A stretch of DNA of 64,000 nt from Pristiophorus japonicus (taxonomy: Eukaryota): assembly GCF_044704955.1 (NCBI RefSeq), contig NC_091987.1, positions 26,288,001-26,352,000 on the forward strand, written 5' to 3'. The notes below the pieces were generated by a model. That model was given only the letters and a program-made list of their open reading frames with translations, did not search any database and had not been told where the DNA came from. Shown piece after piece: positions 27,331 through 59,005 of the stretch. Position 1 is the first letter of the stretch, and every line of letters starts with the position of its first letter. Position numbers and translations under genes: made by a program.

Positions 27331-27368
27331 GGTTTTTGTCAGGGCCCAGGTGGGTTTGTAACGCTGTG
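27331..27368 (-). other. RSS with a 22-bp spacer
   Basis: CACAGCG (27368-27362), 22-nt spacer, consensus nonamer ACAAAAACC. Confidence 0.88.
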
Positions 27369-27677: not shown

Positions 27678-28252
27678 CTGCAAACCAACGATCCGAGAAA
27701 TATATTGATCTAACACTGAAGTGCACGCGTACTCTGAGTCAATTGCTGATATACCAGCGATTTGACGCACAAATTGTTCATATATACCGGAATTAATGCA
27801 ACGGTAACACATTTAAACTAGTTATCCCAATCCCCAAACCCTACGTGAAAAGATCCTAATACATTACTTGAAGAAGAGCTGCGGCGTCCTAGGAGAATAT
27901 TTATTCCTGAAACAATCTCACTAAAAATAGATAATCTGGTTGTATCCCGGTTATGTTTATGGGATCTTGTTTTGCGCGATTTCGCTGCCGCCTTTTCGAC
28001 ATTACAACAGTAACTACACTTCACAAACACATAACTCGGGATGTCCTGAGGTTGCGCAATTTAAAAGCAAGTCTTTCCTTCTTTGTTAAATAAAACATTC
28101 ATATAGAAGACGAATAAATAAAGTCTAATAACTGATAGTACTTTGGCACAGCTGATTAAATCGGTATGTCTTTTTGTCATTTCCACATTTATACAAAATT
28201 AAAATTAAAGGGACAAAACAGAGATGAGGTATTGGCTCAATGCCATTCTTAC

Positions 28253-28298
28253 ACAGCAGCAGAAATAAAACCGTCAGTTGGAGAACATTGAAAAGCAT
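28253..28298 (-). CDS. TRBV: Leader exon (MLFNVLQLTVLFLLL) of the 27369-27677 V
   Basis: 46 nt, donor GTAAGA, in-frame splice (T+GT = Cys). Confidence 0.87.
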
Positions 28299-28653: not shown

Positions 28654-31600
28654 AAGCATAGAAACGTAGAAATTTACAGCGCAGAAGGAGGACATTCCTG
28701 CCCGCCGTGTCAGCCCGACAAGGAGCTGCATGGCCCTAGGTCAGCAGCCCTAAAGGTTATATACAAACCCATGAACAATGATGGAAAGGCAAAGAGCACC
28801 CAGCCCAACCAGTCCACCTCAAACAACTGCAAAACCCCTTATACTGAAACATTCTACACTCCACCCTAACCAGAGCCATGTGATCTCCTGGGAGAGGCAA
28901 GAAACAGATAAAAACCCAACCCAATTGAGGAAGAAAAAATCTGGGAAATTTCCTTTCCGAGCCATTCAGACAATCAACGCTAGTCCAGGAGATCCCACTG
29001 TCCGTATTCTATTCCCTGCAGTGCTGACCAATATATATGCGCCGTCCAACCAAAGGTTATCCAGTCTAATCCCAATTACCAGCTCTAGGTCTGATACCCT
29101 GCAAGTTACTGCATTTTAAGTGCCCATCCAACCATCTCTTAAAAGTAGTGACCCTTTCTGCACCACTCATCCAGGCAGCGAGTTCCAGATCTCCACAACC
29201 CTTTGCTTAAACACGACCCCCACCCCCGCCCCGGCAAATCCCCTCTAAACCTTCCAACAATCACCTTAAAACTATGCCTCCTCAGAATAGACCCCTGCAC
29301 CAATGGAGATAGACCCTTACTGTCCACTATGCCCAGGCCCCTCAATATGTTGTACACCTCGATGACGTCTCCTCTCAACCTCCTCTGTTCCAAAGAGAAC
29401 AAACCCAGCCTATCCAATCTGTCCTCATAACTAAGATTCTCCATTCCAGGCAGCACCTATTAAATCTCCTCTGCACCCTCTCGAGTGCAATCACATCCAT
29501 TCTATAATACGGCGACCAGAACTGAACACTGTACTCCAGCTGTGGCCTAACCAAAGTATTATACAATTGAAGCATAACCTCCCCACTCTTACATTCTATG
29601 CCTCGGCCAATAAACGCAAGCATTCCATATGCAGAGAAACATAGAAACATACAAAATAGGTGCAGGAGTAGGCCGTTTAGCCCTTCGAGCATGCACCACC
29701 ATTCAATAAGATCATGGCTGATTATTCACCTCAGTAGCCCTTTCCTGCTTCCTCTCCATACCCCTTGATCCCTTTAGCCATAAGGGCCAAATCTATCTCC
29801 CTCTTGAATATATCCAACGTACTGGCATCAATAACTCTCTGCAATAGGGCATTCCACAAATTAACAAATCTCTGATTGAAGAAGCTTCTCCTCATCGCAG
29901 TCCTAAATGTCTTACCCCTTATGCTTAGACTGTGTCCCCTGGTTCTGGACTTCCCCAACATCGGGAACATTCTTCCTGCATTTAACCTGCCCAGTTCCAT
30001 CAGAATTTTATATGTTTCTATGAGATCTCCTCTCATCCTTCTAAACTCCAGTGAATAAAGGCATAGTCGATCCAATCTGTCCTCATATGTCTCCTGCTAT
30101 TCCAGTAATCAGTCTGGTGAATCTTTGCTGTACTCCCTCAACAGCAAGAACGTCCTTCCTTTGATTAGGAGATCAAAACTGAACACAATATTCCAGGTGA
30201 GGCCTCACCAAGACCTTGTATAACTGCAGTAAGACATCCCTGCTCCTATACTCAAATCCCCTAGCTATGAAGGCCAACATATCATTTGTCTTCTTCACCG
30301 CCTGCTGTACTTGCATGCCAACCTTGAAGGACTGATGTACCATGACACCCAGATCTCGTTGCACCTCCCCTTTTACTAATCTGCCACCATTCAGATAATA
30401 TTCTGCCTTCGTGTTTTTACCCCAAAGTGGATAACCTCACATTTATCCACATTATACTGCATCTTCCATGCATTTTCCCATGCACATAATCTGTCCAAGT
30501 CAACCTGCAGCCTCTTAGCGTCCTCCTCACAGCTCACACCGCCACCCAGTTTAGTGTCATCTGCAACATTGGAGACACTAAATTCAATTCCTTTATCTAA
30601 ATCATTAATGTATATTGTAAATAGCTGGAGTCCCTGCACTGAGCCCTGCGGCACCCCACTAGTCACTGGCTGCCATTCTGAAAATGACCCGTTTATCCCG
30701 ACTCTCTGCTTCCTGTCTGCCAACCAGTTCTCTATCCACGTCAGTACCTTACCCGCAATACCATGTGCTTTAATCTTGCGCATCAATCTCTTGTTTGGGA
30801 CCTTGTCAAAAGCCTTTTGAAAGTCCAAATGCACCACAACCACTTGTTCTCCCTTGTCCACTCTATTAGTTGCATCCTCAAAAAAGCCTTCTTAACCACC
30901 TTATCTGCCTGGCCTGCTAAATTCAGGGATCTATGGACAAGCACTCCAAGGTCCCTTTGTTCATCTACACTATTAAGTGGCCTACTACTTAATGTGTATA
31001 TCTTTCCTTATTAGCCCTCCCAATGCACATCACCTCAATCTTCTCTGAATTAAATTCCATTTGCCACTGCTCTGCCCACTTGACCAGTAGATTGATATCC
31101 TCCTGTAGCCCATGACTTTCCTCTTCAGTATCAACCTGCATCCAACTTTAGTTTCGTCTGCAAACTTCGTAATCGTACTCCTTATATGCAAATCTAAATC
31201 GTTGATATATACCACACTAAGCAAGGGACCCAGAACTGAGCCCTGCGGAACCCAACTGGAAATAACTTTCCAGTCACAAAAACATCCATCAAGCATTATC
31301 CTTTGCTTTCTACCTCCAAGCCAATTTTGGATCCAATTTGCCACTTTGCCCATTATCCCATGGGTTTTAAACTTCATGACCAGTCTACCATGTGGGACCT
31401 TATCAAAAACCTTGCTAAAGTCCATATATAGTCCAGCGTATGCACTACCCTCATCGCACATCTTAATTATCTCCTCAAAAGATTCAATCAGGATAGTCAA
31501 AACGATCTTCCCTTAACAAATCATTGCTGACTGTCCCTAATTAATTCTTGGATTTCCAAATGTAGATTTGCCAGTCTTTCAGGATTTTTTCCAATAATTT

Positions 31601-33935
31601 CCCATCACTGAGGTTAGGCTGACAGGTCTGTAATTACTCGGCCTATCCCTTTTTCCCTTCTTAAACAAGGGTACAACATTAGCTGTCCTCCACTCCTCTG
31701 GCTTCATGCCCAGATTCAAAGAGTACTGGAAAATGATGGTCAAGGCCTCTGCTATTTCCTCTTTTATTTGGTTCAACAGCCTGCGATGCATTTCATACGG
31801 GTCTGGTGTCTTATCGAATTTCAAAGTTGCTAAACCGCTTAATGCTTCCTCTCTCACTATATTTATTTCAACCAGAATATCACACACCTCCTCGATAGCA
31901 GTATCTGCATTACCCCTTTCCTTTGTGAAAACAGATGCAAAGTTTTTGTAAAGAACCCTACCAATATCTTCCGCCTCCACACAAAGATTACCATCATGGT
32001 CTCTAATGGCCCCCACCCTTTCTTTAGTTACCCTCTTAGTCTCAACATATTTATACAACATCTTAACGTTTACCTTAATTTCGCTGGCCAAGAATTTCTC
32101 GTGCTCTCTCTTCGCATTCCTAAAGTCCGTTTAAATTTTGCCACTTATCTTTCTATATTCCTCTAAAGATTCTAAAACATTTAGCCATTGCTATATGACA
32201 TAAGCATCCCTTTTTTCCTTAATCCTCCCCTGTAAGTCCCTAGTCATCCAGGGAGCTCTAGAAATATTTTTTCCAACCTTTTTCTTTAAGGGCATATGTT
32301 TGGCCTGAGCCGTCCGGATCTCCTCCTTGTATTCCTCCCACTGTTCCGACACGGATTTACCACAGTAGCCATTTCCAGTCCACTATGGCCAAATCATGCA
32401 CTAACATAGCAAAATGTCCTCAATTCGGAACTTTTAGTCCAGTCCGATTCTTGTCCTTATCCATAACCAACTTGAATCTGACTGAATTATGGCCACTGGC
32501 ACCAAGTGCTCCGCCACGAATACCCCTTCAACCTGCCCATCTTTATTCCCTAAAACGAAATTCAAGACCGCCCCCTGTCGTTTGGGGCTTGCTACATACT
32601 GACTAAAAAAGTTCTCTTGAACGCATTTGAAGCTCCCTCTATACACTTCACGCTATATTTGTCCCAATCAATATTTGGAGAGTTAAAGTCCCCGACTATT
32701 ACCACCCTGTGCTTTAGACTTCGCAGCAATGTGCCTACATATTTGCTCCTCTATCTCCCTCCCACTGTTTAGGGGTCTGTACTGTGATCGCCCATTTTTT
32801 ATTTTTCAATTCGACCCATATGGCCTCATTTGATGATCACTCTAAGGTATCATCCCTTCGCACCACTGTAATAGTTTATTTAATTAGTACTACAACCCCC
32901 AAACCCCTCCTTTTACCTCCCTCTCTATCTTGACTAAAAATCCTGTAGCCAGGAATATTGATCTTTCAAACCTGCCCCTCTTTCAGCCATATCTCTGTAA
33001 CGGCTATAATGTCATACTCCCAAGTGTCTACCTGTGCTCTTAGCTCATCTGCCTTATCGCTATACTCCTCGCATTAAATTATATACCATTCAGAACAGGA
33101 AGACCTCCTTGCTTACTACGTACTAAGCCCTGTTTCCTCTGTCTTACAGATTCACTTTCTAGATTTTTGCTATCCAATTTCTGCTTTACTTCCTTCCCTT
33201 TTGAATTCGTTCCCAGGATCCCACCTCCCTGCCAAGCTAGATAACTTCTCCCCAACAACACTAGCAAAACTCCCCGTGATGATATTGGTCCCTGCGCTGT
33301 TGAAATGCAAGCCATCCGGTTTGTACAGGTCCCATCTCCGCCAGACAAGGTCCCAATGTTTCAAGAATTTAAAGCCCTCCCTTCTGCATCAACTTACCAG
33401 CCACGTGTTCATCCTCTCTTTCCTTCTACTCTTATACTCATTAGCACGTGGCACCGGTAGTAACCCGCAGATTACTACCTTTGAGGTCCTACGCTTTAAT
33501 TTTCTTCCTCGCTCGCTGAAATCTTCCTGTAAGACCTCACTCCTCATTTTACCTACGTCGTTGGTCCCGATATGGACCACGATCTCAAGCTGTTTACCCT
33601 CCCCCTCCAGAATGCCCTGCGTCCGCTTTGTGACATCCTTGACCCTGGCACCAGGGATGCACAAAACCATTCAGGAGTCACGTCTACGGCCGCAGAAACG
33701 CCTGTCTGCTCCCCTAACTATCGAAACCCCTATTACAGGGGCACTTTTTTCGCCGTCCCTCAGCCCTGTACAGCTGGGTCACCCCTGGTGCCTTGGAATT
33801 TCCTCGGGCTGCACTCCCCAGAGGCACCATCATCCTTACCGATACTCAGAAGTGAATATCGATTTGAAAGCGGGATGGACTCACAGGGGGACTCTGCGCT
33901 AGCTGCATAGCATATGTATTACCTCTGGTGGTTAG
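28654..33935 (-). mobile_element. Long CR1 (family with a long 3' UTR; ORF1 esterase plus ORF2), interrupted at 29633-30886 by a second CR1
   Basis: ORF1 PGARVKDV..VVHIGTNDV..LLPVPR..DGLH; RT motifs; host CCATATGC|CTTCTTAACC rejoins across the nested copy. Confidence 0.88.
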
Positions 33936-34161
33936 CACTTCCCCTTGTTTTAATAAGTCGCAAGATCCTGATTAATAAGTTACTGTTGCCAATACAAACA
34001 AACATTGAAAGCAAAAAGCGTGGGTAATTCATTGGTGACATAAGAATATTAGAAGTAGGAGCAGGAAAAAGCCAGACGGTCCTTCCACCCTTCTCCGCCA
34101 TTCAATGTGATCATAGCTGATCATCGACCTCCACTCCTCTTTTCTGCCCGATCTCCATATC

Positions 34162-34348
34162 CAGGGATGATGCTCATACCACGTCACTATAAAAGAACAG
34201 GCATGAGGAAGATTGATCGCGTTTTCATTTTGTGCCAAATGGACGGACTGTAAAAGCGTCACAGAACCAGCGTAGTTGACCTTTAAGGTGACTCGTAGAG
34301 CTGCTGCAACATTTTTTCAATCTCTGCCTCGGCATCTGGAGGCACGGG
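34162..34348 (-). pseudogene. Possible 5' half of a degenerate V exon; copies at ~43184-43370 and ~52262-52444
   Basis: MLQQ../VTLKVNYAGSVTL(x)CS../VTWYEHHP with frameshifts, truncated by a CR1 tail, downstream of a leader-like exon. Confidence 0.35.
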
Positions 34349-35566
34349 CTACAATGGAGCTACTGCGTCAGCTAGTGACGGCAATCTGCAACTACATGAA
34401 CTTGGCAGCAGCACAGTGTTACCAATAAAGTCGGCATTTTGAAGTCATGGCGTGACATAGTTCCATCTTCCAATTATTCTATTCTCAACTTCAGGTGTTG
34501 ACGCTTGTTTCATAGAACAAGATTGAATTGCACTGCACCGCGGTAGAATTGACGAATTGGATTATTTAGATCATTAATTGTGCTTTAAAACATAAGAACT
34601 TAAGAAATAGGGGCAGGATAAAGCCATTCAGTCCCTGGAGCCTGCTCCTCCATTCAATAAGATCATCGTTGATCTGATATTGGCCTCAAGTCCAATTCTC
34701 TGCCTGTTCCCAATAACCCTTCAAACCCCTGTAGTTCAAAAATCTATCTATATCCGCCTTAATTGCATTCAATGAAACAGCCTCGAAAGATATCTGGGAT
34801 AGAGTATTCCAAAGTTCACGATAATTTGAGAGAGGAAATTCCTCCTAATAATGTCTTAAATGGACGACCCCTCATTCACAAACAAACCCCCTGTTTCTAG
34901 AAGCCGCCACGAGGGAAAACATCGGATCAGCGTCTACCCTGTCAAGTCCCCTCAGAATGTAAACTCCAGTGAGTATAGCCCAAAACTGCTCAACCTTTCC
35001 TCATAAGACAAGGCTTCATCTCCGGACTGAACCCAGTGAAATTTATCTGAAGGGCCACAATTCAACTATATCACTCCTTAAATAAAGAGACCAAAACTGC
35101 TCGAGGTGTGGTCTCACCAACGCCCTGTACAGTTGTAGCAAGACTTCCTTACATGCATACTCCATCCCCTTGCAATAAAGGCCAACATTCCATTTGCCTT
35201 CCTAATTATTTGCTGTACCTGCATTCTAACTTTTTGTGTTTCATGTACGAGGATACCCAGATCGCACTGCGCCACAGCATTCTGTAGTCTCTCTCCATTT
35301 GAATAATAATTTGCTTTTTTATTCTTCCTACGAAACTGGATTACCTCACCTTTTCCAACATTGTACCCCATCTGCCAAATCATTGCCCACTTACTTAACC
35401 TGTCAATATCCTTTGCAGGCTCGTTGTGTCCGTTTTACATCGTGCTTCCCTACCCATAATTGTATCATCAGTAAATTTGGCTACAGTATAGTATACTCCG
35501 TCTTTTCATCCAAGTCTTTTTATTCGGACAAATCTAGAAACATGATTACAAATGCATGTAATATAC

Positions 35567-35612
35567 TTAAAGGCAGAAAGAGAAAACCAAGGATGATGGA
35601 AGTGCAGTGCAT
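35567..35612 (-). pseudogene. Leader-like exon MHCTSIILGFLFLPL (unit 1)
   Basis: 46 nt to GT (weak donor GTATAT); upstream resembles the 28298 promoter, with TAACGTCA and GCGGAAGT. Confidence 0.55.
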
Positions 35613-36069
35613 CGTTGCTGCAGATGTAATACACATTCGGCTGTTTGATGCGGCTTTCATGGAGAGACGCTGTTTGAGAGCAGGCAAAATATAACGTCAT
35701 AAGCGGAAGTTATTACATGGTAATTGGCGATGGCTTGTCCCGAGCTTTTGTTTCTATCTTTCTTCCTTTAATTCGTTGTTTATTTATGTCATTCTAACTT
35801 GCATTTCTATTGCACCTCTCATGACTTCAGAATGTTCCCAAGAATTTTACAACCAATAAAGTGCAGTCACTGTTGCAATGTAGGAAACGCGTTGGTCAAT
35901 TGCAAAGAGCAAGCTCCCACAAACAGCAATGTGATATTTACCAGATAATCTGTTTTAATTATTTTGCCTCAGGAATAAACAGTGCTCAGGACACCATGCG
36001 AACTTTTCTGCTCTTCGAAATACTGTCAGTGAGGAATTTTACGTCCAGTTGAGAGTTTACTTACACCCT

Positions 36070-36680
36070 CTGTACTCCCACTGCGACAGTTCTGCACCAG
36101 CTCAGCACTGCGCCTTCAAGAGTGCAGCATTCCCTCAATACTGCCGCTTCGACAGGGCAACTGTCCCTCAGTACTGGTCCTCCAACATTACAGCATTCCC
36201 TCAGTACTGCCCCTCTGACAGTGCGGCGCTCCCTCAGTGCTACACTTCTGACAATGCAGCCCTCAGTCGGTAGTGCACGTCAGACAGTGCAGCATTCCCT
36301 CAGTACTGCCCCTCAGACAGTGCAGCACCTCCTCAGTACTGCCCCTCCGACAGTGCAGCACTCCCTCAGTAGTGCGCCTCCGACAGTGCAGCGCTCCCTC
36401 AGTAGTGCGCCTCAGACAGTGCAGCACTCCCTCAGTACTGTCGCTCGAACAGTGCAGCGCTCCCTCAGAACTGTCGCTGTGACAGTGCGGTGCTCCCTCA
36501 GTACTGTCCCTGTGACAGTGCAGCAATCCCTGAGTACTACCCTTCCGACGGTGCAGCGCTCCATCAGTACTGTCCCTGTGACAGTGCAGCACTCCCTGAG
36601 TACTACCCCTCCGACGGTGCAGCGCTCCCTCAGTACTGTCCCTGTGACAGTGCAGCACTCCCTGAGTACTGCCCCTCCGA
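36070..36680. repeat. 33-bp minisatellite (CAGTGCAGCACTCCCTCAGTACTGCCCCTCCGA)n; copies at ~45090-45760 and ~54170-54778
   Basis: Direct reading; 11-aa periodicity in the overlapping ORFs. Confidence 0.92.
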
Positions 36681-38230
36681 AGGCAGTTGTTTGGGAGTCT
36701 TCTATCAGGCATGCGAGCAATGTGGCTCGCCCAACGGAGCTGATCAAGTGTGGTCAGTGCTTCGATGCTGTGGATGTTGGACTGATCAAGGACACTAACG
36801 TTGATGCTTCTGTTCTCTCATCAGATTTGCAGGATCTTGTGGAGACATCGTTATTGTATTTCTCCAGCGACTTGAGATGTCTACTGTATATGGTCCACAT
36901 CTCTGTGCCATACAGCAGGGCAGGTATCACTACAGCCTTTTAGACCATGAGCTTGGTGGTAGATTTGAGAGCATGATCTTTGAAGACTCTTTTCCTCAGG
37001 TGGCCGAAGCTACGCTGGCGCACTGGAGGCAGTGTTGAATCTCGTTGTTGATGTCTGCCCTTGCTGATAATAGGTTCCTGTGGTATGGAAAGTGCTCCAC
37101 GTTGTCCAGGGCCGAGCCATGGTTCTTGATGAATGTGGGGCAGTGCTGTGTGTCGGGGTCAGGTTGGTGGAGGTCTTCTGGATGTTTCGTGTAAGGCTCA
37201 TGCATTTGTACGCCTCAGTGAAGATGTTGACTATGACTTGGATTTCAGTCTCCGAAAGTGTGCAGATACATGTGTCATCCGCATACTGTAGTTTGACGAC
37301 AGTGGTTGGAATGGTATTCGATCTGGCCTGGAGATGCCGGAGGTTGAAAAGGTTGCCACTGGTTCCGTAGTTTAGTTGCACACACATGCTTTCGATACCT
37401 GGCTCAGACGATGATATCGTTGAGCAGGTGCCAGTGTTTAGAGCGAGCATGTTGCCATGATGCATTGTACTTATCCTTCTGGCAGAACAAGTGTTCGTGA
37501 TAACAAAGTCGTGCTCCAGGCATTTTGTCAGGAGCAGGGTACCGCTGGAATTGTTTTCCCTAACCCCTCTCTGCTGATCCATAAAGGGCTGCGTCCTTGC
37601 TGACCCTGTCAGTCAAGTCACCGAGGAGGATTAGTTTGTCATCTGCAGATATGCAGGACAAGGATTTTTTGAACTGTTAAAACCCTCTTTGATATCATCT
37701 AATGCATCCGAGTGTTGGGGTGTACGCACTAATGACTGTGGCGCATTGGTTCTGGGATAGGGTGAGTCTGAGAGTTATGGGACATTCGCTAATCTTGCAG
37801 GGGGAGTCTCTGAGGCAGTCGACCAGCTCGTTCTTGATCGCGAAATTGACTCTGTGGAGGCGCCATTCTTCCTCTGGTTTGCCTTTCGAGAAGTCATTAT
37901 AACCTCTACCTTGTTCCTTGAGCTGGTCTTCCCCTGCCCGCCAGGTCTCTCTTAGGGTGGCGATGTTGCCAATGAAGCATCTACATTCCCGGGCAACTAT
38001 GGAGGTGCGGCGCTCCGGTCTGTCACTGAGGGCCCTGACATTCCAGGTCCCGAAATTCATATTGAAGTTTGGAAGATACTTGTGCGTGATTTCTTTTCAC
38101 GTGGGGTGGCAGTTGCACACCGACTACCACATGGACTAAGCTGAGCAATGTCTTCGTTCAGTGACAAGAGGCTCCAAGACGGCCAGTGACCAGGCACTGC
38201 TGTATGAGCCTAATTGCCTATGGTGAGTTG
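36681..38230 (-). mobile_element. Internally deleted RTE-clade LINE; copies at ~45760-47300 and ~54780-56330
   Basis: EN start MNFGTWNVR..RRT.IVARE..LRET, ISAY.PT; RT LQYADD. Confidence 0.85.
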
Positions 38231-38361
38231 CGGACTGTAAGCTCGGCTCTGAGCTGCGCCCTTCCGTGAGGTCGTAATTGATCCGAGGCTTGGCTGGGGC
38301 AGGCATTGGGAAGGTCAGAGATCGAATTTGTGGAAAGAGGAGAGCTCAGAGAGGTGACAGC

Positions 38362-38630
38362 CAATGTGCTCACCACCTGCTACAGGAGTAGAGGCCCGGT
38401 CGGCGCTGGATGGATGGAGACCCGCTCATCGATGGATGGAAGAAGGCCCCATCGTCGCCAATGCGTGGAGGCCCGGAGGGAAGGCTCGTGCGTGCGTTAA
38501 GCCCAATGCTGCTTTAGTAACAGGTCGATGTTTCACAGGGGGTCGCTTGGAGCAGCTGAGTCGTCTGTAGGGGAGCGAAAAGCGAGGGTCCAGATGGAGG
38601 AACTTGGTAGGGAGGACGTCGTAATGAATT
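38362..38630 (-). pseudogene. Possible highly decayed V relic with heptamer CACATTG; copies at ~47431-47700 and ~56461-56728
   Basis: YQVPP../LSCS../T(W>C)Y*..GL../DERVSI../DRA(L)YSC.GGE then CACATTG; needs several frameshifts and has no nonamer at 23 nt. Confidence 0.3.
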
Positions 38631-41600
38631 TGTTAAGGAAAAGGATATCAGAAACAATGATAGAATCATAGAAACATAGAAAATAGGTGCAGGAGTAGGC
38701 CATTCGGCGCCTCGAGCTTGCGCCACTTTTCAATAGGTCATGGATGATCATTCACCTCAGTACCCCTTTCCTGCTTTTTCTCCATACCCTTGGTCCCTTT
38801 AGCCGTAAGGGTCAAATCTAACTCCCTCTTGAATAAATCCAATGAACTGACATGAGCAATTCTCTGCGGTAGGGAATTCCACAGGTTAACAACTTTCTCA
38901 GTGAAGAGGTTTCTCCTCATCTCGGTCCTAAATGACTTACCCCTTATCCTTAGATTGTGTTCCCTGATTCTGGACTTCCCCAACATCGGGAACATTCTTC
39001 CTGCATCTAACCTGTCCAGTTCCGTCAGAATTTTATATGTTTCTATGAGATCCCCTCCCTTCCTTCTAAACTCCAGTGAATACAGGTCTAGTCGATCCAG
39101 TCTCTCCTCATATGTCAGTCCTGCCATCCGGGGAATCATTCTGGTGAACCTTCGCTGCACTCACTCAATAGCAATAACATCCTTCCTCAGATTAGGAGAC
39201 CAAAACTGAAAACAATATTCCAGGTGAGGCGTCACCAAGGCCCTGTACAACTGCAGTAAGACCTCCCTGCTCCTATACTCGAATCCCCTAGCTATGAAGG
39301 CCAACATACCATTTGCCTTCTTCACCACCTACTGTGCCTGCATGCCAACTTTCAATGACCGTTGTACCATGACTCCCAGACCTCATTGCACCTCCCCTTT
39401 TCCTAATCTGCCACCATTCAGATAATAATCTACCTACGTGTTTTTGTCACCAAAGTGGATAACCTCACATTTATCCACATTATACTGCATCTTCCATGAA
39501 TTTGCCCACGCACCTAATCTGTCCAAGTCAACCTGCAGCCTCTTAGCGTCCTCCTCACAGCTCACACCGCCACCCAGTTTAGTGTCATCTGCAACATTGG
39601 AGACACTACATTCAATTCCTTTATCTAAATCATTAATGTATATTGTAAATAGAAGGAGTCCCTGCACTGAGCCCTGCGGTACCCCACTAGTCACTGGCTG
39701 CCATTCTGCAAATGACCCGTTTATCCCAACTCTCTGCTTCCTGTCTGCTAACCAGTTCTCTATACACGTCAGTACCTTACCCCCAATACTATGTGCTTTA
39801 ATCTTGCACACCAATCTCTTGTGTGGGACCTTGTCAAAAGCCTTTTGAAAGTCCAAATGCACCACAACCACTTGTTCTCCCTTGTCCACTCTATTAGTTA
39901 CATCCTCAAAAAAGCCTTCTTAACCACCTTATCTGCCTGGCCTGCTAAATTCAGGGATCTATGGACAAGCACTCCATGGTCCCTTTGTTCATCTACACTA
40001 TTAAGTGGCCTCTTGCTTAATGTGTATATCTTTCCTTATTAGCCCTCCCAATGCACATCACCTCAATCTTCTCTGAATTAAATTCCATTTGCCACTGCTC
40101 TGCCCACTTGACCAGTAGATTGATATCCTCCTGTAGCCCATGACTTTCCTCTTCAGTATCAACCTGCATCCAACTTTAGTTTCGTCTGCAAACTTCGTAA
40201 TCGTACTCCTTATATGCAAATCTAAATCGTTGATATATACCACACTAAGCAAGGGACCCAGAACTGAGCCCTGCGGAACCCAACTGGAAACAGCTTTCCA
40301 ATCACAAAAACATCCATCAAGCATTATCCTTTGCTTCCTACCTCCAAGCCAATTTTGGATCCAATTTACCACTTTGCCCATTATCCCATGGGGTTTAAAC
40401 TTCATGACCAGTCTACCATGTGGGACCTTATCAAAAGCCTTGCTAAAGTCCATATATAGTCCAGCGTAGGCACTAGCCTCATCGTACATCTTAATTACCT
40501 CCTCAAAAAATTCAATCAGGATAGTCAAAACGATCTTCCCTTAACAAATCCTTGCTGACGGTCCCTAATTAATTCTTGGCTTTCCAAATGTAGATATGCC
40601 TGTCTTTCAGGATTTTTTCCAATAATTTCCCATCACTGAGGTTAGGCTGACAGGCCTGTAATTACTCGGCCTATCCCTTTTTCCCTTCTTAAACAAGGGT
40701 ACAATATTAGCAGTCCTCCACTCCTCTGGCATCATGCCCAGATCCAAAGAGTACTGGAAAATGATGGTCAAGGCCTCTGCTATTTCCTCTTTTATTTTGC
40801 TCAACAGCCTGCGATGCATTTCATACGGGTCTGGCGTCTTATCTACTTTCAAAGTTGATAAACCACTTAATGCTTCCTCTCTCACTATATTTATTTCAAC
40901 CAGAATATCACACACCTCCTCGATAGCAGTTTCTGCATTACCCCTTTCCTTTGTGAAAACAGATGCAAAGTTTTCGTAAAGAATCCTACCAACATCTTCC
41001 GCCTCCACACAAAGATTACGTTCATGGTCTCTAATAGCCCTACCCTTTCTTTAGTTACCTTCTTAGTCTCAACATATTTATACAACATCTTAATGTTTAC
41101 CTTAATTTCGCTGGCCAAGAATTTCTCGTACTCTCTCTTAGCATTCTTAAAGTCCTTTTTAATTTTGCCTCTTATATTTCTATATTCCTCTAAAGATTCT
41201 AAAATATTTAGCCATTGCTATATGACATAAGCGTCCCTTTTTTCCTTAATCCTCCCCTGTAAGTCCCTAGTCATCCAGGGAGCTCTAGAAATATTTTCCC
41301 AACCTTTTTCTCTAAGGGCATATGTTTGGCCTGAGCCGTCCGGATCTCCTCCTTGTATTCCTCCCACTGTTCCGACACGGATTTACCACAGTAGCCATTT
41401 CCAGTCCACTATGGCCAAATCATGCCCTAACGTCGCAAAATTTCCCCAATTCGGAACTTTTAGTCCAGTCCGATTCTTGTCCTTATCCATAACCAACTTG
41501 AATCTGACTGAATTATGGCCACTGGCACCAAGTGCTCCGCCACTAATACCCCTTCAACCTGCCCATCTTTATTCGCCAAAACTAAATTCAAGACCGCCCC

Positions 41601-44587: not shown

Positions 44588-44633
44588 TTAAAGGCAGAAA
44601 GAGAAAACCAAGGATGATGGAAGTGAAGTGCAT
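44588..44633 (-). pseudogene. Leader-like exon MHFTSIILGFLFLPL (unit 2)
   Basis: Duplicate of 35567-35612; donor GTGTAT. Confidence 0.55.
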
Positions 44634-47600: not shown

Positions 47601-50600
47601 TTCACAGGGGGTCGCTTGGAGCAGCTGAGTCGTCTGTAGGGGAGCGAAAAGCGAGGGTCCAGATGGAGGAACTTGGTAGGGAGGACGTCGTAATGAATTT
47701 GTTAAGGAAAAGGATATCAGAAACAATGATAGAATCATAGAAACATAGAAAATAGGTGCAGGAGTAGGCCATTCGGCGCCTCGAGCTTGCGCCACTTTTC
47801 AATAGGTCATGGATGATCATTCACCCCAGTACCCCTTTCCTGCTTTTTCTCCATACCCTTGGTCCCTTTAGCCGTAAGGGTCAAATCTAACTTCCTCTTG
47901 AATAAATCCAATGAACTGACATCAACAATTCTCTGCGGTAGGGAATTCCACAGGTTAACAACGTTCTCAGTGAAGAAGTTTCTCCTCATCTCGGTCCTAA
48001 ATGACTTACCCCTTATCCTTAGACTGTGTTCCCTGATTCTGGACTTCCCCAACATCGGGAACATTCTTCCTGCATCTAACCTGTCCAGTTCCGTCAGAAT
48101 TTTATATGTTTCTATGAGATCCCCTCCCATCCTTCTAAACTCCAGTGAATACAGGTCTAGTCGATCCAGTCTCTCCTCATATGTCAGTCCTGCCATCCGG
48201 TGAATCATTCTGGTGAACCTTCGCTGCACTCCCTCAATAGCAATAACATCCTTCCTCAGATTAGGAGACCAAAACTGATAACAATATTCCAGGTGAGGCC
48301 TCACCAAGGCCCTGTACAACTGCAGTAAGACCTCCCTGCTCCTATACTCGAATCCCCTAGCTATAAAGGCCAACATACCATTTGCCTTCTTCACCACCTA
48401 CTGTGCCTGCATGCCAACTTTCAATGACCGTTGTACCATGACTCCCGGCCTCATTGCACCGTCCCTTTTCCTAATCTGCCACCATTCAGATAATAATCTA
48501 CCTACGTGTTTTTGTCACCAAAGTGGATAACCTCACATTTATCCACATTATACTGCATCTTCCATGAATTTGCCCACGCACCTAATCTGTCCAAGTCAAC
48601 CTGCAGCCTCTTAGCGTCCTCCTCACAGCTCACACCGCCACCCAGTTTAGTGTCATCTGCAACATTGGAGACACTACATTCAATTCCTTTATCTAAATCA
48701 TTAATGTATATTGTAAATAGAAGGAGTCCCTGCACTGAGCCCTGCGGTACCCCACTAGTCACTGGCTGCCATTCTGCAAATGACCCGTTTATCCCAACTC
48801 TCTGCTTCCTGTCTGCTAACCAGTTCTCTATACACGTCAGTACCTTACCCCCAATACTATGTGCTTTAATCTTGCACACCAATCTCTTGTGTGGGACCTT
48901 GTCAAAAGCCTTTTGAATGTCCAAATGCACCACAACCACTTGTTCTCCCTTGTCCACTCTATTAGTTACATCCTCAAAAAAGCCTTCTTAACCACCTTAT
49001 CTGCCTGGCCTGCTAAATTCAGGGATCTATGGACAAGCACTCCAAGGTCCCTTTGTTCATCTACACTATTAAGTGGCCTCCTGCTTAATGTGTATATCTT
49101 TCCTTATTAGCCCTCCCAATGCACATCACCTCAATCTTCTCTGAATTAAATTCCATTTGCCACTGCTCTGCCCACTTGACCAGTAGATTGATATTCTCCT
49201 CTAGCCCATGACTTTCCTCTTCAGTATCAACCTGCATCCAACTTTAGTTTCGTCTGCAAACTTCGTAATCGTACTCCTTATATGCAAATCTAAATCGTTG
49301 ATATATACCACACTAAGCAAGGGACACAGAACTGAGCCCTGCGGAACCCAACTGGAAACAGCTTTCCAATCACAAAAACATCCATCAAGCATTATCCTTT
49401 GCTTCCTTCCTCCAAGCCAATTTTGGATCCAATTTGCCACTTTGCCCATTATCCCATGGGTTTTAAACTTCATGACCAGTCTACCATGTGGGACCTTATC
49501 AAAAGCCTTGCTAAAGTCCATATATAGTCCAGCGTAGGCACTACCCTCATCGTACATCTTAATTACCTCCTCAAAAAATTCAATCAGGATAGTCAAAACG
49601 ATCTTCCCTAAACAAATCCTTGCTAATTGTCCCTAATTAATTCTTGGCTTTTCAAATGTAGATTTGCCTGTCTTTCAGGATTTTTTCCAATAATTTCCAA
49701 TAATTTCCCATCACTGAGGTTAGGCTGACAGGCCTGTAATTACTCGGCCTATCCCTTTTTCCCTTCTTAAACAAGGGTACAACATTAGCAGTCCTCCACT
49801 CCTCTGGCATCATGCCCAGATCCAAAGAGTACTGGAAAATGATGGTCAAGGCCTCTGCTATTTCCTCTTTTATTTGGCTCAACAGCCTGCAATGCATTTC
49901 ATATGGGTCTGGCGTCTTATCTACTTTCAAAGTTGATAAACCACTTAATGCTTCCTCTCTCACTATATTTATTTCAACCAGAATATCACACACCTCCTCG
50001 ATAGCAGTTTCTGCATTACCCCTTTCCTTTGTGAAAACAGATGCAAAGTTTTCGTAAAGAACCCTACCAACATCTTCCGCCTCCACACAAAGATTACGTT
50101 AATGGTCTCTAATAGCCCTACCCTTTCTTTACTTACCCTCTTAGTCTTAACATATTTATACAGCATCTTAACGTTTACCTTAATTTCGCTGGCCAAGAAT
50201 TTCTCGTACTCTCTCTTAGCATTCTTAAAGTCCTTTTTAATTTTGCCTCTTATCTTTCTATATTCCTCTAAAGATTCTAAAATATTTAGCCAATGCTATA
50301 TGACATAAGCGTCCCTTTTTTCCTTAATCCTCCCCTGTAAGTCCCTAGTCATCCAGGGAGCTCTAGAAATATTTTCCCAACCTTTTTCTCTAAGGGCATA
50401 TGTTTGGCCTGAGCCGTCCGGATCTCCTCCTTGTATTCCTCCCACTGTTCCAACACGGATTTACCACAGTAGCCATTTCCAGTCCACTATGGCCAAATCA
50501 TGTCCTAACGTAGCAAAGTTTCCCCAATTCGGAACTTTTCGTCCAGTCCGATTCTTGTCCTTATCCATAACCAACTTGAATCTGACTGAATTATGGCCAC

Positions 50601-53600
50601 TGGCACCAAGTGCTCCGCCACTGATACCCCTTCAACCTGCCCATCTTTATTCGCCAAAACTAAATTCAAGACCGCCACCTCTCGTGTGGGGCTTGCAACA
50701 TACTGACTAAAAAAGTTCTCTTGAACGCATTTGAAGCTCCCTCTATACACTTCACGCTATATTTGTCCCAATCAATATTTGGATAGTTAAAATCCCCGAA
50801 TATTACCACCCTGTGCTTTAGACTTCGCAGCAATGTGCCTACATATTTGCTCCTCTATCTCCCTCCCACTGTTTAGGGGTCTGTACTGTGATCGCCCATT
50901 TTTTATTTTTCAATTCGACCCATATGGCCTCATTTGATCATCACTCTAACGTATCATCCCTCCTCACCACTGTAATAGTTTATTTAATTAGTACTACAAC
51001 CCCCATATCCCTCCTTTTACCTCCCTCTCTATCTTGACTAAAAATCCTGTAGCCAGGAAGATTGATCTGTCAAACCTGTCAAACAGCCATGTCTCTGTAA
51101 CGGCTATAATGTCATACTTCCAAGTGTCTACCTGTGCTCTTAGCTCATCTGCCTTATCGCTATACTCCTCGCATTAAATTATATACCATTCAGAACAGGA
51201 AGACCCCCTTGCTTACTTCGTACTAAGCCCTGTTTCCTCTGTCTTACAGATTCACTTTCTAGATTCTTGCTATCCAATTCCTGCTTTACTTCCTTCCTTT
51301 TTGAATTCGTTCCCAGGATCCCAACTCTCGGCCAAGCTAGTTTAACTTCTCCCCAACAACACTAGCAAAATTCCCCGTGATGATATTGGTACCTGCGCTG
51401 TTGAAATGCAAGCCGTCCGGTTTGTTCAGGTCCCATCTCCGCCAGACATGGTCCCAATGCTTCAAGAATTTAAAGCCCTCCCTTCTGCATCAACTTACCA
51501 GCCACGTGTTCATCCTCTCTTTCCTTCTACTCTTATACTCATTAGTACGTGGCACCGGTAGTAACCCGCAGATTACTACCTTTGAGGTCCTACGCTTTAA
51601 TTTTCTTCCTCGCTCGCTGAAATCTTCCTGTAAACCTCATTCCTCATTTTACCTACGTCGTTGGTCCCGATATGGACCACGATCTCAAGCTGTTTACCCT
51701 CCCCCTCCAGAATGCCCTGCGTCCGCCTTGTGACATCCTTGACCCTGGCACCAGGGATGCACAAAACCATTCAGGAGTCACGTCTACGGCCGCAGAAACG
51801 CCTGTCTGCTCCCCTAACTATCGAAACCCCTATCACAGGGGCACTTTTTTCGCCGTCCCTCACCCCTGTGCAGCTGGGTCACCCCTGGTGCCTTGGAATT
51901 GCCTCGGGCTGCACTCCCCAGAGGCACCATCGTCCTTACTGATACTCAGAAGTGAATATCGGTTTGAAAGCGGGATGGACTCCCGGGGGTCTCTGCGCTA
52001 GCTGCATAGCACACTTACTACCTCTGGTGGTTACCCACTTCCCCTTGTTTTAAAAAATCGCAAGATCCTGATTAATAAGTTACTGTTGCCAATACAAACA
52101 AACAGTGAAAGCAAAAAGCGTGGGTAATTCATTGGTGACATAAGAATATTAGAAGTAGGAGAAGGAAAAAGCCAGGCGTTCCTTCCACCCTCCTCCGCCA
52201 TTCGATATGATCATAGCTGATCATCGACCTCCACTCCTCTTTTCTGCCCGATCTCCATATCCAGGGATGATGCTCATATCACGTCATGATAAACAGGCAT
52301 GAGGAAGATTGATCGCGTTTTCATTTTGTGCCAAATGGACGGACTGCAACAGCGTCACAGAACCAGCGTAGTTGACCTTTATGGTGACTCGTAGAGCTGC
52401 TGCAACATTTTTTCAATCTCTGCCTCGGCATCTGGAGGCACGGGCTACAATGGAGCTACTGCGCCAGCTAGTGACGGCAATCTGCAACTACATGCACTTG
52501 GCAGTAGCACAGTATTACCGATAAAGTCGGCATTTTGAAGTCATGGCGTGACATAGTTCCATCTTCCAATTATTCTATTCTCAGCTTCAAGTGTTGACGC
52601 TTGTTTCAAAGAACAAGATTGAATTGCACTGCACCGCGGTAGAATTGACGAGTTGGATTATTTAGATCATTAATTGTGCTTTAAAACATAAGAACTTAAG
52701 AAATAGGGGCAGGATAAAGCCATTCAGTCCCTGGAGCCTGCTCCTCCATTCAATAAGATCATCGTTGATCTGATATTGGCCTCAAGTCCAATTCTCTGCC
52801 TGTTCCCAATAACCCTTCAAACCCCTGTAGTTCAAAAATCTATCTCTATCCGCCTTAATTGCATTCAATGAAACAGCCTCGAAAGATATCTGGGATAGAG
52901 TATTCCAAAGTTCACGATAATTTGAGAGAGGAAATTCCTCCTAATAATGTCTTAAATGGGCGACCCCTCATTCACAAACACACCCCTTGTTTCTAGAAGC
53001 CGCCACGAGGGGAAACATCGGATCAGCGTCTCCCCTGTCAAGTCCCCTCAGAATGTAAACTCCAATGACTGTAGCCCAAAACAGCTCAACCTTTCCTCAT
53101 AAGACAAGGCTTCATCTCCGGAATGAACCCAGTGAAATTTATCTGAACGGCCTACAATGCAACTATATCACTCCTAAAATAAAGAGACCAAAACTGCTCT
53201 AGGTGTGGTCTCACCAACGCCCTGTACAGTTGTAGCAAGACTTCCTTACATGCATACTCCATCCCCTTGCAATAAAGACCAACATTCCATTTGCCTTCCT
53301 AATTATTTGCTGTACCTGCATACTAACTTTTTGTGTTTCATGTACGAGGATACCCAGATCGCACTGCGCCACAGCATTCTGTAGTCTCTCTCCATTTGAA
53401 TAATAATTTGCTTTTTTATTCTTCCTACGAAAGTGGATTACCTCACCTTTTCCAACATTGTACCCCATCTGCCAAATCATTGCCCACTTACTTAACCTGT
53501 CTATATCCTTTTGCAGGCTCGTTGTGTCCTTTTTACATCGTGCTTCCCTACCCATTATTGTATCATCAGTAAATTTGGCTACATTATACTATACTCCGTC

Positions 53601-53664
53601 TTTTCATCCAAGTCGTTTTATTCGGACAAATCTAGAAACATGATTACAAATGCATGTAATACAC

Positions 53665-53710
53665 TTAAAGGCAGAAAGAGAAAACCAAGGATGATGGAAG
53701 TGAAGTGCAT
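53665..53710 (-). pseudogene. Leader-like exon MHFTSIILGFLFLPL (unit 3)
   Basis: Duplicate of 35567-35612. Confidence 0.55.
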
Positions 53711-56700
53711 CGTTGCTGCAGATGTAATACACATTCGGCTGTTTGATGCGGCTTTCATGGAGAGACGCTGTTTGAGAGCAGGCAAAATATAACGTAATAA
53801 GCGGAAGTTATTTCATGGTAATTGGCGATGGCTTGTCCTGAGCTTTTGTTTCTCTCTTTCTTCCTTTAATTCGTTGTTTATTTATGTCATTCTAACTTGC
53901 ATTTCTATTGCGCGTCTCATGACTTCAGAATGTTCCCAAGAATTTTACAACCAATAAAGTGCAGTCACTGTTGCAATGTAGGAAACGCGGTGGTCAATTG
54001 CAAAGAGCAAGCTCCTACAAACAGCAATGTGATAATTACCAGATATTCTGTTTTAATTATTTTGCCTCAGGAATAAACAGTGCTCAGGACACCATGCGAA
54101 CTTTTCTGCTCTTCGAAATACTGTCAGTGAGGAATTTTACGTCCACTTGAGAGTTTACTTACACCCTCTGTACTCCCACTGCGACAGTTCTGCACCAGCT
54201 CAGCACTGCGCCTTCAAGAGTGCAGCATTCCCTCAATACTGCCGCTTCGACGGGGCAACTGTCCCTCAGTACTGGTCCTCCAACAATACAGCATTCCATC
54301 AGTACTGTCCCTCTGACAGTGCGGCGCTCCCTCAGCGCTACACTTGTGACAATGCAGCACTCACTCGGTAGTGCACGTCAGACAGTGCAGCATTCCCTCA
54401 GTACTGCCCCTCAGATAGTGCAGCACCTCCTCAGTACTGCCCCTCCGACAGTGCAGCACTCCCTCAGTAGTGCGCCTCCGGCAGTGCAGCGCTCCCTCAG
54501 TAGTGCGCCTCAGACAGTGCAACACTCCCTCAGTACTGTCGCTCCAACAGTGCGGCGCTCCCTCAGTACTGTCCCTGTGACAGTGCGGTGCTCCCTCAGT
54601 ACTGTCCCTGTGACAGTGCAGCAATCCCTGAGTACTACACTTCCGACGGTGCAGCGCTCCCTCAGTACTGTCCCTGTGACAGTGCAGCATTCCCTGAGTA
54701 CTACCCCTCCGACGGTGCAGCGCTCCCTCAGTACTGTCCCTGTGACAGTGCAGCACTGCCTCAGTACTGCCCCTCCGGAGGCAGTTGTTTGGGAGTCTTG
54801 TGTCAGGCATGCGAGCATTGTGGCTCGCCCAACGGAGCTGATCAAGTGTGGTCAGTGCTTCGATGCTGTGGATGTTGGACTGATCAAGGACACTAACGTT
54901 GATGCTTCTGTTCTCCCAGCAGATTTGCAGGATCTTGTGGAGACGTCGTTAGTGGTATTTCTCCAGCGACTTGCGATGTCTACTGTATATGGTCCACATC
55001 TCTGTGCCATACAGCAGGGCAAGTATCACTACAGCCTTTTAGACCATGAGCTTGGTGGTAGATTTGAAAGCATGATCTTTGAAAACTCTTTTCCTCAGGT
55101 GGCCGAAGGCTGCGCTGGCGCACTGGAGGCAGTGTTGAATCTCGTTGTTGATGTCTGCCCTTGCTGATAATAGGTTCCTGTGGTATGGAAAGTGCTCCAC
55201 GTTGTCCAGGGCCGCGCCATGGTTCTTGATGAATGTGGGGCAGTGCTGTGTGTCGGGGTCAGGTTGCTGGAGGTCTTCTGGATGTTTCGTGTAAGCCCCA
55301 TGCAATTGTACGCCTCAGTGAAGATGTTGACTATGACTTGGAGTTCAGTCTCCGAAAGTGTGCAGATACATGCGTCATCCGCATACTGTAGTTTGACGAC
55401 AGTGGTTGGAACGGTCTTCGATCTGGCCTGGAGATTCTGAAGGTTGAAAAGGTTGCCACTGATTCCATAGTTTAGTTGCACACATATGCTTTTGATACCT
55501 GGCTCAGACGATGATACAGTTGAGCAGGTGCCAGTGTTTAGAGCGAGCATGTTGCCATGATGCATTGTACTTATCCTTCTGGCAGAACAAGGGTTAGTGA
55601 TAACATTTTGTCATTTTGTCAGGAGCAGGGTACCGCTGGAATTGTTTTCCCTACCCGCTCTCTGCTGATCATGGCTCCATAAAGGGCTGCGTCCTTGCCG
55701 ACCCTGTCAGTCAAGTCACCGAGGAGGATTAGTTTTTCATCTGCAGATATGCAGGAGAAGGATTTTTTGAGATGTTAAAACCCTCTTTGATATCATCTAA
55801 TGCATCCGAGTGTTGGGGTGTAAGCTCTGATGACTGTGGCGCATTGGTTCTGGGATAGGCTGAGTCTGAGAGTTATGAGACATTCGCTAATCTTGCAGGG
55901 AGAGTCTCTGAGGCGGTCGACCAGCTCGTTCTTGATCGCGAAATTGACTCTTTGGAGGCGGCGTTATTCCTCTGGTTTGCCTTTCGAGAAGTTGCTATCA
56001 CCTCTACCTTGTTCCTTGAGCTGGCCTTCCCCTGCCCGCCAGGTCTCTCTTAGGGTGGCGATGTTGCCAATGAAGCATCTAATTTCCCGGGAAACTATGG
56101 AGGTGTGGCGCTCCGGTCTGTCAGTGAGGGCCCTGACATTCCAGGTCCCGAAATTCATATTGAAGGTTGCAAGATACTTGTGCGTGATTTATTTTCACAT
56201 GGGTTGGCAGTTGCACACCGACTACCACATGGACTATGCTGAACAATGTCTTCGTTCAGTGACAAGAGGCTCCAAGATGGCCAGTGACCAGGCACTGCTG
56301 TATGAGCCTAATTCCCTATGGTGAGTTGCGGGCTGTAAGCTCGGCTCTGAGCTGCGCCCTTCCGTGAGGTCGTAATTGATCCGAGGCTTGGCTGGGGGCA
56401 GGCATTGGGAAGGTCAGAGATCGAATTTGTGGAAAGAGGTGAGCTCAGAGAGGTGACAGCCAATGTGCTCACCACCTGCTACGGGAGTAGAGGCCCGGTC
56501 GCCGCTGGATGGATGGAGACCCGCTCATCGATGGATGGAAGGAGGCCCCATCGTCGCCAATGCGTGGAGGCCCGGAGGGAAGGCTCGTGCGTGCGTTAAG
56601 CCCAATGCTGCTTTAGTAACAGGTCGATGGTTCACAGGGGGTCGCTTGGAGCAGCTGAGTCGTCTGTAGGGGAGCGAAAAGCGAGGGTTCAGATGGAGGA

Positions 56701-56756
56701 ACTTGTTGGGAGGACGTCGTAATGAATTTGTTAAGGAAAAGGATATCAGAAACAAT

Positions 56757-59005
56757 GATAGAAACATAGAAACATAGAAAATAGGTGCAGGAGTAGGCCA
56801 TTCGGCGCCTCAAGCTTGCGCCACTTTTCAATAGGTCATGGATGATCATTCACCTCTGTACCCCGTTCCTGCTTTCTCTCCATACCCTTGGTCCCTTTAG
56901 CCGTAAGGGTCAAATCTAACTCCCTCTTCAATAAATCCATTGAACTTACATCAACAATTCTCTGCGGTAGGGAATTCTACAGGTTAACAACTCTCTCATG
57001 AAGAAGTTTTTCCTCATCTCAGTCCTAAATGACTTACTCCTTATCCTTAGACTGTGTCCCCTGATTCTGGACTTCCCCAACATCGGGAACATTCTTCCTG
57101 CATCTAACCTGTCCAGTTCCGTCAGAATTTTATATGTTTCTATGAGATCCCCTCCCATCCTTCTAAACTCCAGTGAATACAGGCCTAGTCGATCCAGTCT
57201 CTCCTCATATGTCAGTCCTGCCATCCGGGGAATCATTCTGGTGAACCTTCGCTGCACTCCCTCAATAGCAAGAACATCCTTCCTCAGATTAGGAGACCAA
57301 AACTGAAAACAATATTCCAGGTGAGGCCTCACCAAGGCCCTGTACAACTGCAGTAAGACCTCCCTGCTCCTATACTTGAATCCCCTAGCTATGAAGGCCA
57401 ACATACCATTTGCCTTCTTCACTGCCTACTGTGCCTGCATGCCAACTTTCAATGACCAATGTACCAAGACACCCAGGCCTCATTGCACCTCCCCTTTTCC
57501 TAATTTGCCGTCATTCAGATAATAATCTACCTTCGTGTTTTTGTCACCAAAGTGGATGAGCTCAGATTTATCCACATTATACTGCATCTACCATGCGTTT
57601 CCCACTCACCTATCATGTCCAAGTCCCCCTGAAGACTTTTAGCGTCCTCCAAACAGCTCACACCGCCACCCAGCTTCGTGTCATCTGCAAACTTGGAGAT
57701 ATTACACTCAATTCCCTCATCAAAATCATTAATGTATATTGTTAACAGCTGGAGTCCCAGCACTGAGTCCTGTGGCACCACACTAGTCACTGCTTGCCAT
57801 TCTGAAAAATACCTGTTTACCCTGACTCTCTGCTTCCTGTCTGCCAACCACTTCTCTATCCACGTCAGTATATTACCCCCAAAACCATGTGCTTTAATTT
57901 TGCACACCAATCTGTTGTGTGGGACGTTGTGAAAAGCCTTTTGAAAATCCAAATACACCACATTCACTGGTTCTCCCTTGTCCACTCTACCAGTTACATC
58001 CTCAAAAATTTCTTGAAGATTTGTCAAGCCAGATTTCCCTTTCAGAGATCCATGCTGACTTGGACCGATCCTGTCACTGCTCTCCAAATGTGCTGTTATT
58101 TTATCTTTAATAATTGATTCCAACATTTTCCCCACGAATGATGTCAGGCTAACCGATTTGTAATTACCCGTTTTATCTCTCCCTCCTTTCTTAAAAAATT
58201 GTGTTACATTAGCTATCCTGCAGTCCATAGAACCGATCCAGATTCGATAGACTGTTCGAAAATGATCACCAATGCATCCACTCTTTCAAGAGCCATTTTT
58301 TAAAGTATTCTGGGATGCAGACTATCAAGCCCTGGTGATTTAGCGAGCTTCAATCCCATCAATTTCTCTAACACAATCTCCCGCCTAATAAGGATTTCCT
58401 TCAGTTCCACCTTCTTACTAGACCCTCGGTCCCCTAGTATTTCCAGAAGATTATTTGTGTCTTCCTTCGTGAAGACAGAAGCAAAGTATTTGTTTAACTG
58501 GTCCACCATTTCTTTTTTTCCCCATCATAAATTCACCTGAATCTGACTGCAAGGGACCCACGTTTTTTTACACTAATCTTTTTCTCTTCACATATCTATA
58601 GAAGCTTTTGCAGTCAGTTTTTATGTTCCCGGCAAGCTACCACTCATACTCTACTTTCCCCCTCCTAATTAAGCCCTTTGTCCTCCTCTGCTGTACTATA
58701 AAATTCTCCCAGTCCTTGGGTTTGCTGTTTTTTCTGCCAATTTATATGCCTCTTCCTTGGATTTAACACTATCCTTAATGTCCCTTGTTAGCCACGGTTG
58801 AGCCACCTTCCCCGTTTTACTTTTACTTTTACTTTTACTCCAAACAGGGATGTTCAATTGCTGCAGTTCTTCCATGTGATCTTTAAATGTTTGCCATTGC
58901 CTATCCACCGCCAACCCTTTATGTATCACTCGCCAGTCTATTCTAGCCAATTCACGACTCATACCATCGAAGTTACCTTTCATTAAGTTCAGAACCCAAG
59001 TCTCC
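56757..59005 (-). mobile_element. 5'-truncated CR1 (ORF2 fragments), right-hand parent of the duplication junctions
   Basis: ORFs 56946-57422, 57527-58228 and 58696-59052 with RT motifs; (CATAGAAA)n tail. Confidence 0.9.

Follow-up and report, generated by a model that had tools for sequence, protein, structure and literature searches.

The 64,000-nucleotide window analysed here, positions 26288001-26352000 of NC_091987.1 (C11) in the 5.9-Gb genome of Pristiophorus japonicus, contains a three-copy tandem array that probably arose in two steps: a homology-directed exchange between the LINEs A and D, and then, likely, an unequal crossover within the duplicated unit, which carries no V exon. The array is an ordinary repeat-driven duplication of the TEMR-HR type (transposable-element-mediated rearrangement by homologous recombination), a mechanism known in humans, and it fits that class on every feature tested.

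Locus Setting and Array Structure

The locus was surveyed over 464 kb around the window. Its V exons lie on the minus strand and carry 22- or 23-spacer signals. To the left of the window, on the same strand, are a D segment, GGGACAGGGGGGGG, at a distance of 17.2 kb, and 11 J-like segments at 17.9-40.2 kb; the D segment has one signal with a 12 and one with a 23 spacer. The D core agrees with the conserved TRBD1 core as quoted in the accessible text of PMC11754216. The order V(23)-D(12/23)-J(12), taken with this conserved core, is that of a TRB locus, and on these features the locus is called TRB-type here. The assignment rests on D and J because structure and protein matches of the V gave a generic V-set only: PDB and Atlas matches for the V at 27370-27678 were of this generic kind, and a protein homologue search with it returned 3 candidates, none reaching E 1e-15. 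No TRBC was found on C11 among the 150 listed of 970 C1-set candidates. Within the window we count six V exons or relics, truncated ones included, at 8.2k, 11.9k, 17.9k, 21.3k, 27.3k, and 62.1k, all outside 29635-59005. The nearest intact-looking V gene has a V-set domain (E 3.3e-9), is single copy in the window, and ends 1.3 kb outside LINE A, beyond the duplication. We note that 33-bp tandem repeats are also present in this DNA.

Self-comparison gave diagonals at offsets 9027 and 18096, and the stretch 29635-56759 consists of three tandem units (Table 1). Their boundaries are four LINE 3' ends that contain RT sequence and all point the same way, at 29635 (A), 38662 (B), 47731 (C), and 56760 (D). 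About 88% of U1 matches at least three other places in the DNA compared. The 9-kb unit is mostly transposon-derived and without a V exon, and its low-copy DNA is a V remnant. Copies of the LINE family have the 8-bp CTATGTTT tail, a short tandem repeat at the 3' end; this tail type, the RT domain (RVT_1 match), and the 5' truncation fit the CR1 clade. The name CR1 for these LINEs follows the first-pass annotation and is putative.

A and D lie on the same strand and are 86.6% identical over 1253 bp, so that the duplicated interval is flanked by homologous elements in direct orientation, as is the case in TEMR-HR. A splits an older host LINE, of which both parts are found at A only. At other loci the two halves are contiguous in 29 left/right flank pairings, and 14 of those 29, as listed, join across the A site with an overlap of 2-6 bp. 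No target-site duplication of D was evident by eye.

Table 1. Features of the array and its surroundings, in window positions
Feature	Position	Strand	Description
U1	29635..38661		9027 bp
U2	38662..47730		9069 bp; resembles U3 on the left and U1 on the right
U3	47731..56759		9029 bp
LINE A, parent	29633..30885	-	CR1-like 3' end, 5'-truncated, nested in older LINE; RVT_1 E 7.8e-18
LINE B, chimeric junction	38662..39913	-	tail side from D, 5' side from A
LINE C, chimeric junction	47731..48981	-	sister copy of B
LINE D, parent	56760..59004	-	CR1-like 3' end, ~2.2 kb
Host LINE, 3' part	29330..29632	-	older LINE split by A; extends further left; beside A only
Host LINE, 5' part	30886..33300	-	right end approximate; U2 and U3 have copies of it that lack the 3' part
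Event 1 breakpoint interval	B 39448..39492; C 48516..48560; A 30421-30464; D 57545-57589
Event 2 breakpoint zone	43129..43516		best split 43129/43201; a split at 43510/43516 scores 3 log units lower
Orphan V promoter and leader exon, U1	35526..35712	-	ATG 35612, MHCTSIILGFLFLPL, GT donor
Orphan V promoter and leader, U2	44547..44733	-	ATG 44633
Orphan V promoter and leader, U3	53624..53810	-	ATG 53710; TGACG motif altered
Old LINE fragment in remnant intron	34590..35490	-	in all three units
Deletion scar	34166..34579	-	junction of an intron stub (34579-34506) with DNA of the V 3' flank (34538-34166)
Deletion scar copies	43188-43601 and about 52262-52675
Nearest intact-looking V gene	27331..28298	-	leader 28298-28253, exon from 27677, RSS heptamer 27368, 22-bp spacer
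V relic with 23-RSS	62107..62277	-	5'-truncated; outside duplication

Chimeric Junction LINEs and the First Exchange

The four LINE copies were aligned, and, as identity can be ancestral, their variable sites were polarised against 57 outgroups, all of the 57 further family copies collected. Of the 169 columns that distinguish A from D, B and C both agree with D at 95 and with A at 71, the other 3 following neither pattern. The best single switch lies at 39449/39461 and was matched by none of 2000 permutations. To the left of 39448-39492, 29 of the 44 rare alleles of D occur in B and C, and none of the 48 of A; to the right, 19 of the 28 rare alleles of A occur in them, and none of the 26 of D. 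Relative to the 57 outgroups, the sites with a derived state shared by B, C, and D (27) all lie at or before 39447, and those shared by B, C, and A (17) all lie at or after 39510. The breakpoint interval is set at 39448-39492 because position 39493 is also common to A, B, and C against the family majority; from 39450 to 39492 A, B, and C are identical, and D has three private differences. Divergence follows the same pattern, with B-D at 4.6% left and 14.1% right of the switch, B-A at 12.6% and 4.2%, and the outgroup nearest to B at 7.7% and 8.5%. The switch score is 18.6 for B and 18.9 for C, as against a mean of 1.7 (sd 1.1, maximum 3.9) in the 57 outgroups.

The first-pass annotation had described the junction LINEs as matching D on the tail side and A beyond ~39490, with a switch at ~39450-39490, and had proposed a four-way alignment with breakpoint analysis. 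The rare-allele counts and the alignment agree with that description, the diagnostic sites do switch, the polarised sites place the switch in nearly the same interval, and the motifs that it quoted are present in the alignment, as is the truncation point AAAAAGCCTTC common to A, B, and C.

The flanks are exchanged as well: B and C have the left flank of D and the right flank of A, with only the 5' half of the host LINE. Because the flanks switch along with the change from D to A, the product is of the crossover type and not a conversion. The junction is in register at homologous positions, without inserted bases or an extra switch. From this anatomy it is well supported that a homology-directed exchange between two same-orientation LINEs 9 kb apart made the first duplication. 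Four comparisons date the event to 3.4-4.6% divergence (B-D 4.6%; B-A 4.2%; U1 against U2 and U3 on the left, 3.8 and 4.0%; U3 against U1 and U2 on the right, 3.4%). The ~13% by which A and D now differ, minus ~4% acquired since, would put their identity at the time of the exchange at ~91% over 1.25 kb.

Origin of the Third Copy

B and C agree with each other against A and D at 20 sites; 7 further changes are found in B only and 10 in C only. The 20 private changes common to B and C point to one CR1-CR1 event and one chimera that was copied later. Odd-one-out counts for U1/U2/U3 are 111/28/36 to the left and 23/26/129 to the right of a split at ~34100 in U1, a contrast matched by none of 1000 permutations. 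Accordingly placed in percentages, U2 and U3 diverge by 1.73 +/- 0.43% on the left and U1 and U2 by 1.12 +/- 0.31% on the right, values that are near but not quite equal, and all other pairs stand at 3.4-4.0%. The breakpoint of this second event is more than 3 kb from the junction LINE. The third copy is likely the product of an unequal crossover inside the unit, at ~43130-43510, between homologues of the two-unit array. The slightly unequal sister divergences and a mixed set of sites from 34368 to 34488 leave room for gene conversion.

Contigs from sequencing runs also bear on the copies. The four listed runs that contain the stretch as contigs, none of them an RNA run, come from one sample and one study, perhaps the assembly's own; X1 and X3 were compared, the other two being equal to them in size. 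The contigs of this one sample carry alleles of all three units. One contig of 703 bp runs through the zone of the second breakpoint. It differs from U2 at 1 site, as against 22 differences and 2 gaps from U1, and it carries three U2-private alleles; contigs can merge near-identical copies and U2 has the majority allele at most sites, so such a contig is weaker than a long read. In X1 the U3 allele at 34556 has a depth of 7.7 and the U2 allele at 34557 a depth of 9.4, of 24.1; X3 shows neither, and the contigs of both runs lack the base at 44561 that is private to U2. Depth, which is not copy number, is 24.2 and 19.5 for the shared-unit contig, while the contig of the single-copy V has 4.8 and 5.3, and the summed unit depth comes to 3.7-5.1 times that of the single-copy V contig. 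Fewer than three copies, which the first-pass annotation had named as a possible outcome of a read-depth check, are thus not favoured by contig depth, within the limits of depth as a measure of copy number. The copy number on the other haplotype may exceed three. No contig bridging the breakpoint inside B or C was among the listed contigs of X1 and X3, and for this reason the first event rests on the assembly.

The V Remnant inside the Unit

V profiles (DNA and protein) for which 26 V exons from the locus were used found nothing better than E 0.4 in 29635-59005, and RSS scans found no RSS in the duplicated units. Expansion of a V array entails at least one V exon with an RSS per unit, and no unit contains one. 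Each unit instead holds an orphan V promoter and leader exon, and in each the leader is open and followed by a GT donor of phase 1. The U1 copy matches at 79% the promoter-leader region of an intact V, locus L062 on contig C1166. Downstream, the intron continues for ~70 bp past the inserted LINE fragment, and the DNA to which it is fused has counterparts in five paralogous loci, where they lie 0.9-1.6 kb downstream of the V exon. Among eight V loci compared, the promoter and leader were matched in six and the 3' flank in five, with a V exon between them in those loci. All three units lack ~1.4-2.2 kb that includes the exon and the RSS, and because the scar is common to all three, the deletion of the V exon is older than the duplication. 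A V-like reading frame at 34029-34316, picked out by eye, has no Pfam match at E 1 and is V 3'-flank DNA.

Since the event copied a V relic, it does not demonstrate repertoire growth. The array is probably neutral. The orientation and splice phase of the leaders fit the exon at 27677, 8-26 kb downstream. It is conceivable, if improbable, that the orphan promoter-leaders are still active and tune the use of the V at 27677 via alternative first exons or germline transcription; were that so, the triplication would be a change of repertoire by promoter dosage and not by added V segments.

Proposed History and Alternative Explanations

In the history that we favour, a V gene first lost its exon and RSS while keeping its promoter, leader, and 3' flank. 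A and D lay on either side of the 9-kb interval, in the same orientation. With an identity at that time of ~91% along 1.25 kb, they would then have mispaired, and an exchange within a 45-bp interval would have yielded two units and one chimeric LINE. The chimera gained its 20 private changes before being copied. Two 96%-identical units would finally have misaligned, with a crossover at ~43130-43510 giving three units, in which U2 is a U3/U1 mosaic and B and C are sister copies.

The first step might also have been a replicative template switch between the LINEs (break-induced replication or a homeologous MMBIR-type event), a different repair path to the same product and anatomy, and crossover and template switch are indistinguishable from sequence. 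We consider the template switch possible but doubtful. Its substrates would be short (1.25 kb) and, at an inferred ~91%, below the 95-97% identity down to which LINE pairs are enriched at breakpoints in the accessible text of PMC4344489, which also notes a replicative or homeologous path as the supposed origin of Alu-Alu events; the junction, however, is in register and free of insertions and extra switches, and PMC9675761, as far as its accessible text goes, gives human LINE-1 HR pairs a median similarity of 93.5% and LINE-1 a median microhomology of 34 bp, near the 45-bp interval found here. The same ~91% lies below the enrichment limit of PMC4344489, which counts against the explanation that we prefer.

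For the third copy, a crossover at or near the junction LINE, with later conversion of the left 4.4 kb of U2 from U3, would account for the mixed sites near the switch and for the slight difference between sister divergences (1.7% left, 1.1% right). It needs an extra long event, and it predicts that the left sisters be the closer pair, whereas they are the more diverged one; we regard it as quite unlikely. An assembly artefact, in which two haplotypes of a two-copy array were wrongly joined to give U2, is less credible still. In its favour, U2 is an exact mosaic of U3 and U1, the contigs lack one of its private bases, and there is only one sample. Against it, U2 has 54 private substitutions (28 + 26), several of which occur in contigs with depths similar to U3 alleles, and the depth summed over the unit is 3.7 times the single-copy contig's or more. 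Hardly any weight can be given to the reading in which CR1-CR1 crossovers made both junctions, duplicating a V-containing cassette and enlarging the V array. Both junctions are indeed chimeric, and the unit holds part of a V gene and sits in a V array; B and C, however, share one breakpoint and 20 private changes, U2 switches parent more than 3 kb from the LINE, and the V exon and RSS are absent in every unit. This reading is refuted for this haplotype. It was that of the first-pass annotation, whose non-allelic recombination between same-orientation CR1s ~9 kb apart is supported, as a homology-directed exchange, for the first duplication and gives way, for the third copy, to a likely crossover inside the unit. 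Its V-containing cassette reduces to a promoter, a leader, and an intron stub fused to V 3' flank, and its direct mechanism for V-array expansion is not borne out, no V segment having been added.

Relation to Known Systems

The comparisons below refer to the accessible text of each source. PMC9675761 characterises TEMR-HR by in-register chimeras and describes further copy gains after the first event. The array is like these cases in direct orientation, a homologous breakpoint, one chimeric junction element, tens of bp of homology, and later copies; it differs in that its elements are CR1-like where those are Alu or L1, in that it is fixed or old (~4% diverged), and in having a second breakpoint mapped inside the unit, in a fish-like genome. 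LINE-LINE NAHR is common in humans according to PMC4344489, and there, as here, duplication breakpoints fall inside two directly oriented LINEs. Those pairs exceed 4 kb and 95% identity, as against 1.25 kb and an inferred ~91%, and the reciprocal product is not seen in the one assembly and one sample used here. PMC2685407 proposes genome-wide repeats as unequal-crossover substrates for TR duplications, with repeats rarely at homology-unit boundaries in cattle and human TRB. Our array resembles those homology units as a tandem unit of the 7-31 kb class in a TRB V region, and differs from them in having a repeat at its boundary and no V gene, where theirs have 1-11 TRBV per unit. Listings of the literature open without subscription showed no paper that describes a CR1 chimera from a TR locus of a shark.

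The two-step history is well resolved: a LINE-LINE exchange at an inferred ~91% identity would have seeded the duplication, and amplification by the array's own homology would have followed. As a mapped case with a repeat at the boundary, it shows that this route is open in a LINE-rich genome; in mammals, repeats are reported to be rare at the boundaries of TRB homology units (PMC2685407).

Other nearby duplications do carry V exons (71.8k/89.3k, -138k/-127k, 128k/143k/163k, and a pair on C1166). An informal look at two annotated ones found no clear in-register chimeric LINE at their ends. The copies in these V-exon-bearing duplications are 75-93% alike and interrupted by insertions.

D and J segments and an inverted V set

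A TRB-type D segment lies ∼17 kb to the left of the window (−17.2k; about 2700−2830 of the fetched stretch L009), and 11 J-like segments are found left of the window as far as −40.2k (stretches L006−L009). Further left, at about 26.09−26.18 Mb of the same contig (G000:C11; −196k to −110k), V exons also occur on the plus strand, as a second set in inverted orientation that faces the first cluster, that is, the TRB-type segments on the minus strand in and around the window. The inverted set has its own D-like segment at −116.9k together with two J-like segments, and its V families are a mirror image of the families found to the right of the window.

Other V genes and repeats

Among the V exons or relics of the window, those at 8.2k, 17.9k, and 21.3k are 71−76% alike and go back to old duplications. 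More V genes are present on G000:C1166, an unplaced 1.25-Mb contig of the same assembly (stretches L113−L120), where they belong to the family of the remnant (the V promoter, leader, and intron stub found once per unit) and include a 13.5-kb V-bearing duplication with copies ∼85−88% alike. These genes may represent a second locus, a missing part of the TRB-type locus, or the other haplotype.

Coordinates of V-bearing features and repeats (minus, left of window start; plus, right; k, kb)
Feature	Position	Details
V exons or relics	8.2k, 11.9k, 17.9k, 21.3k (within 7645−12200, 17350−22400)	some interrupted by insertions
V-bearing duplication, ∼17 kb	+69k to +98k (L012−L015)	V at 71.8k and 89.3k, 84−89% alike
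Satellite array, ∼38 kb	+190k to +228k (L106−L110)	
Tandem array, LINE-derived units of ∼1.6 kb	+237k to +264k (L110−L112)	units 85−95% alike
28-bp minisatellite	60182−61989	65 copies; adjoins V relic at 62.1k
33-bp tandem repeat	36066−36677 (U1), 45142−45758 (U2), 54199−54777 (U3)	one per ∼9-kb tandem unit

The offsets within the satellite array suggest a 22-bp period. The minisatellite contains many CCAAT-like and GC-box-like motifs, and the 33-bp repeat of U2 ends with 48 additional bases. By eye, positions 63600−64000 resemble the beginning of a candidate LTR retrotransposon.
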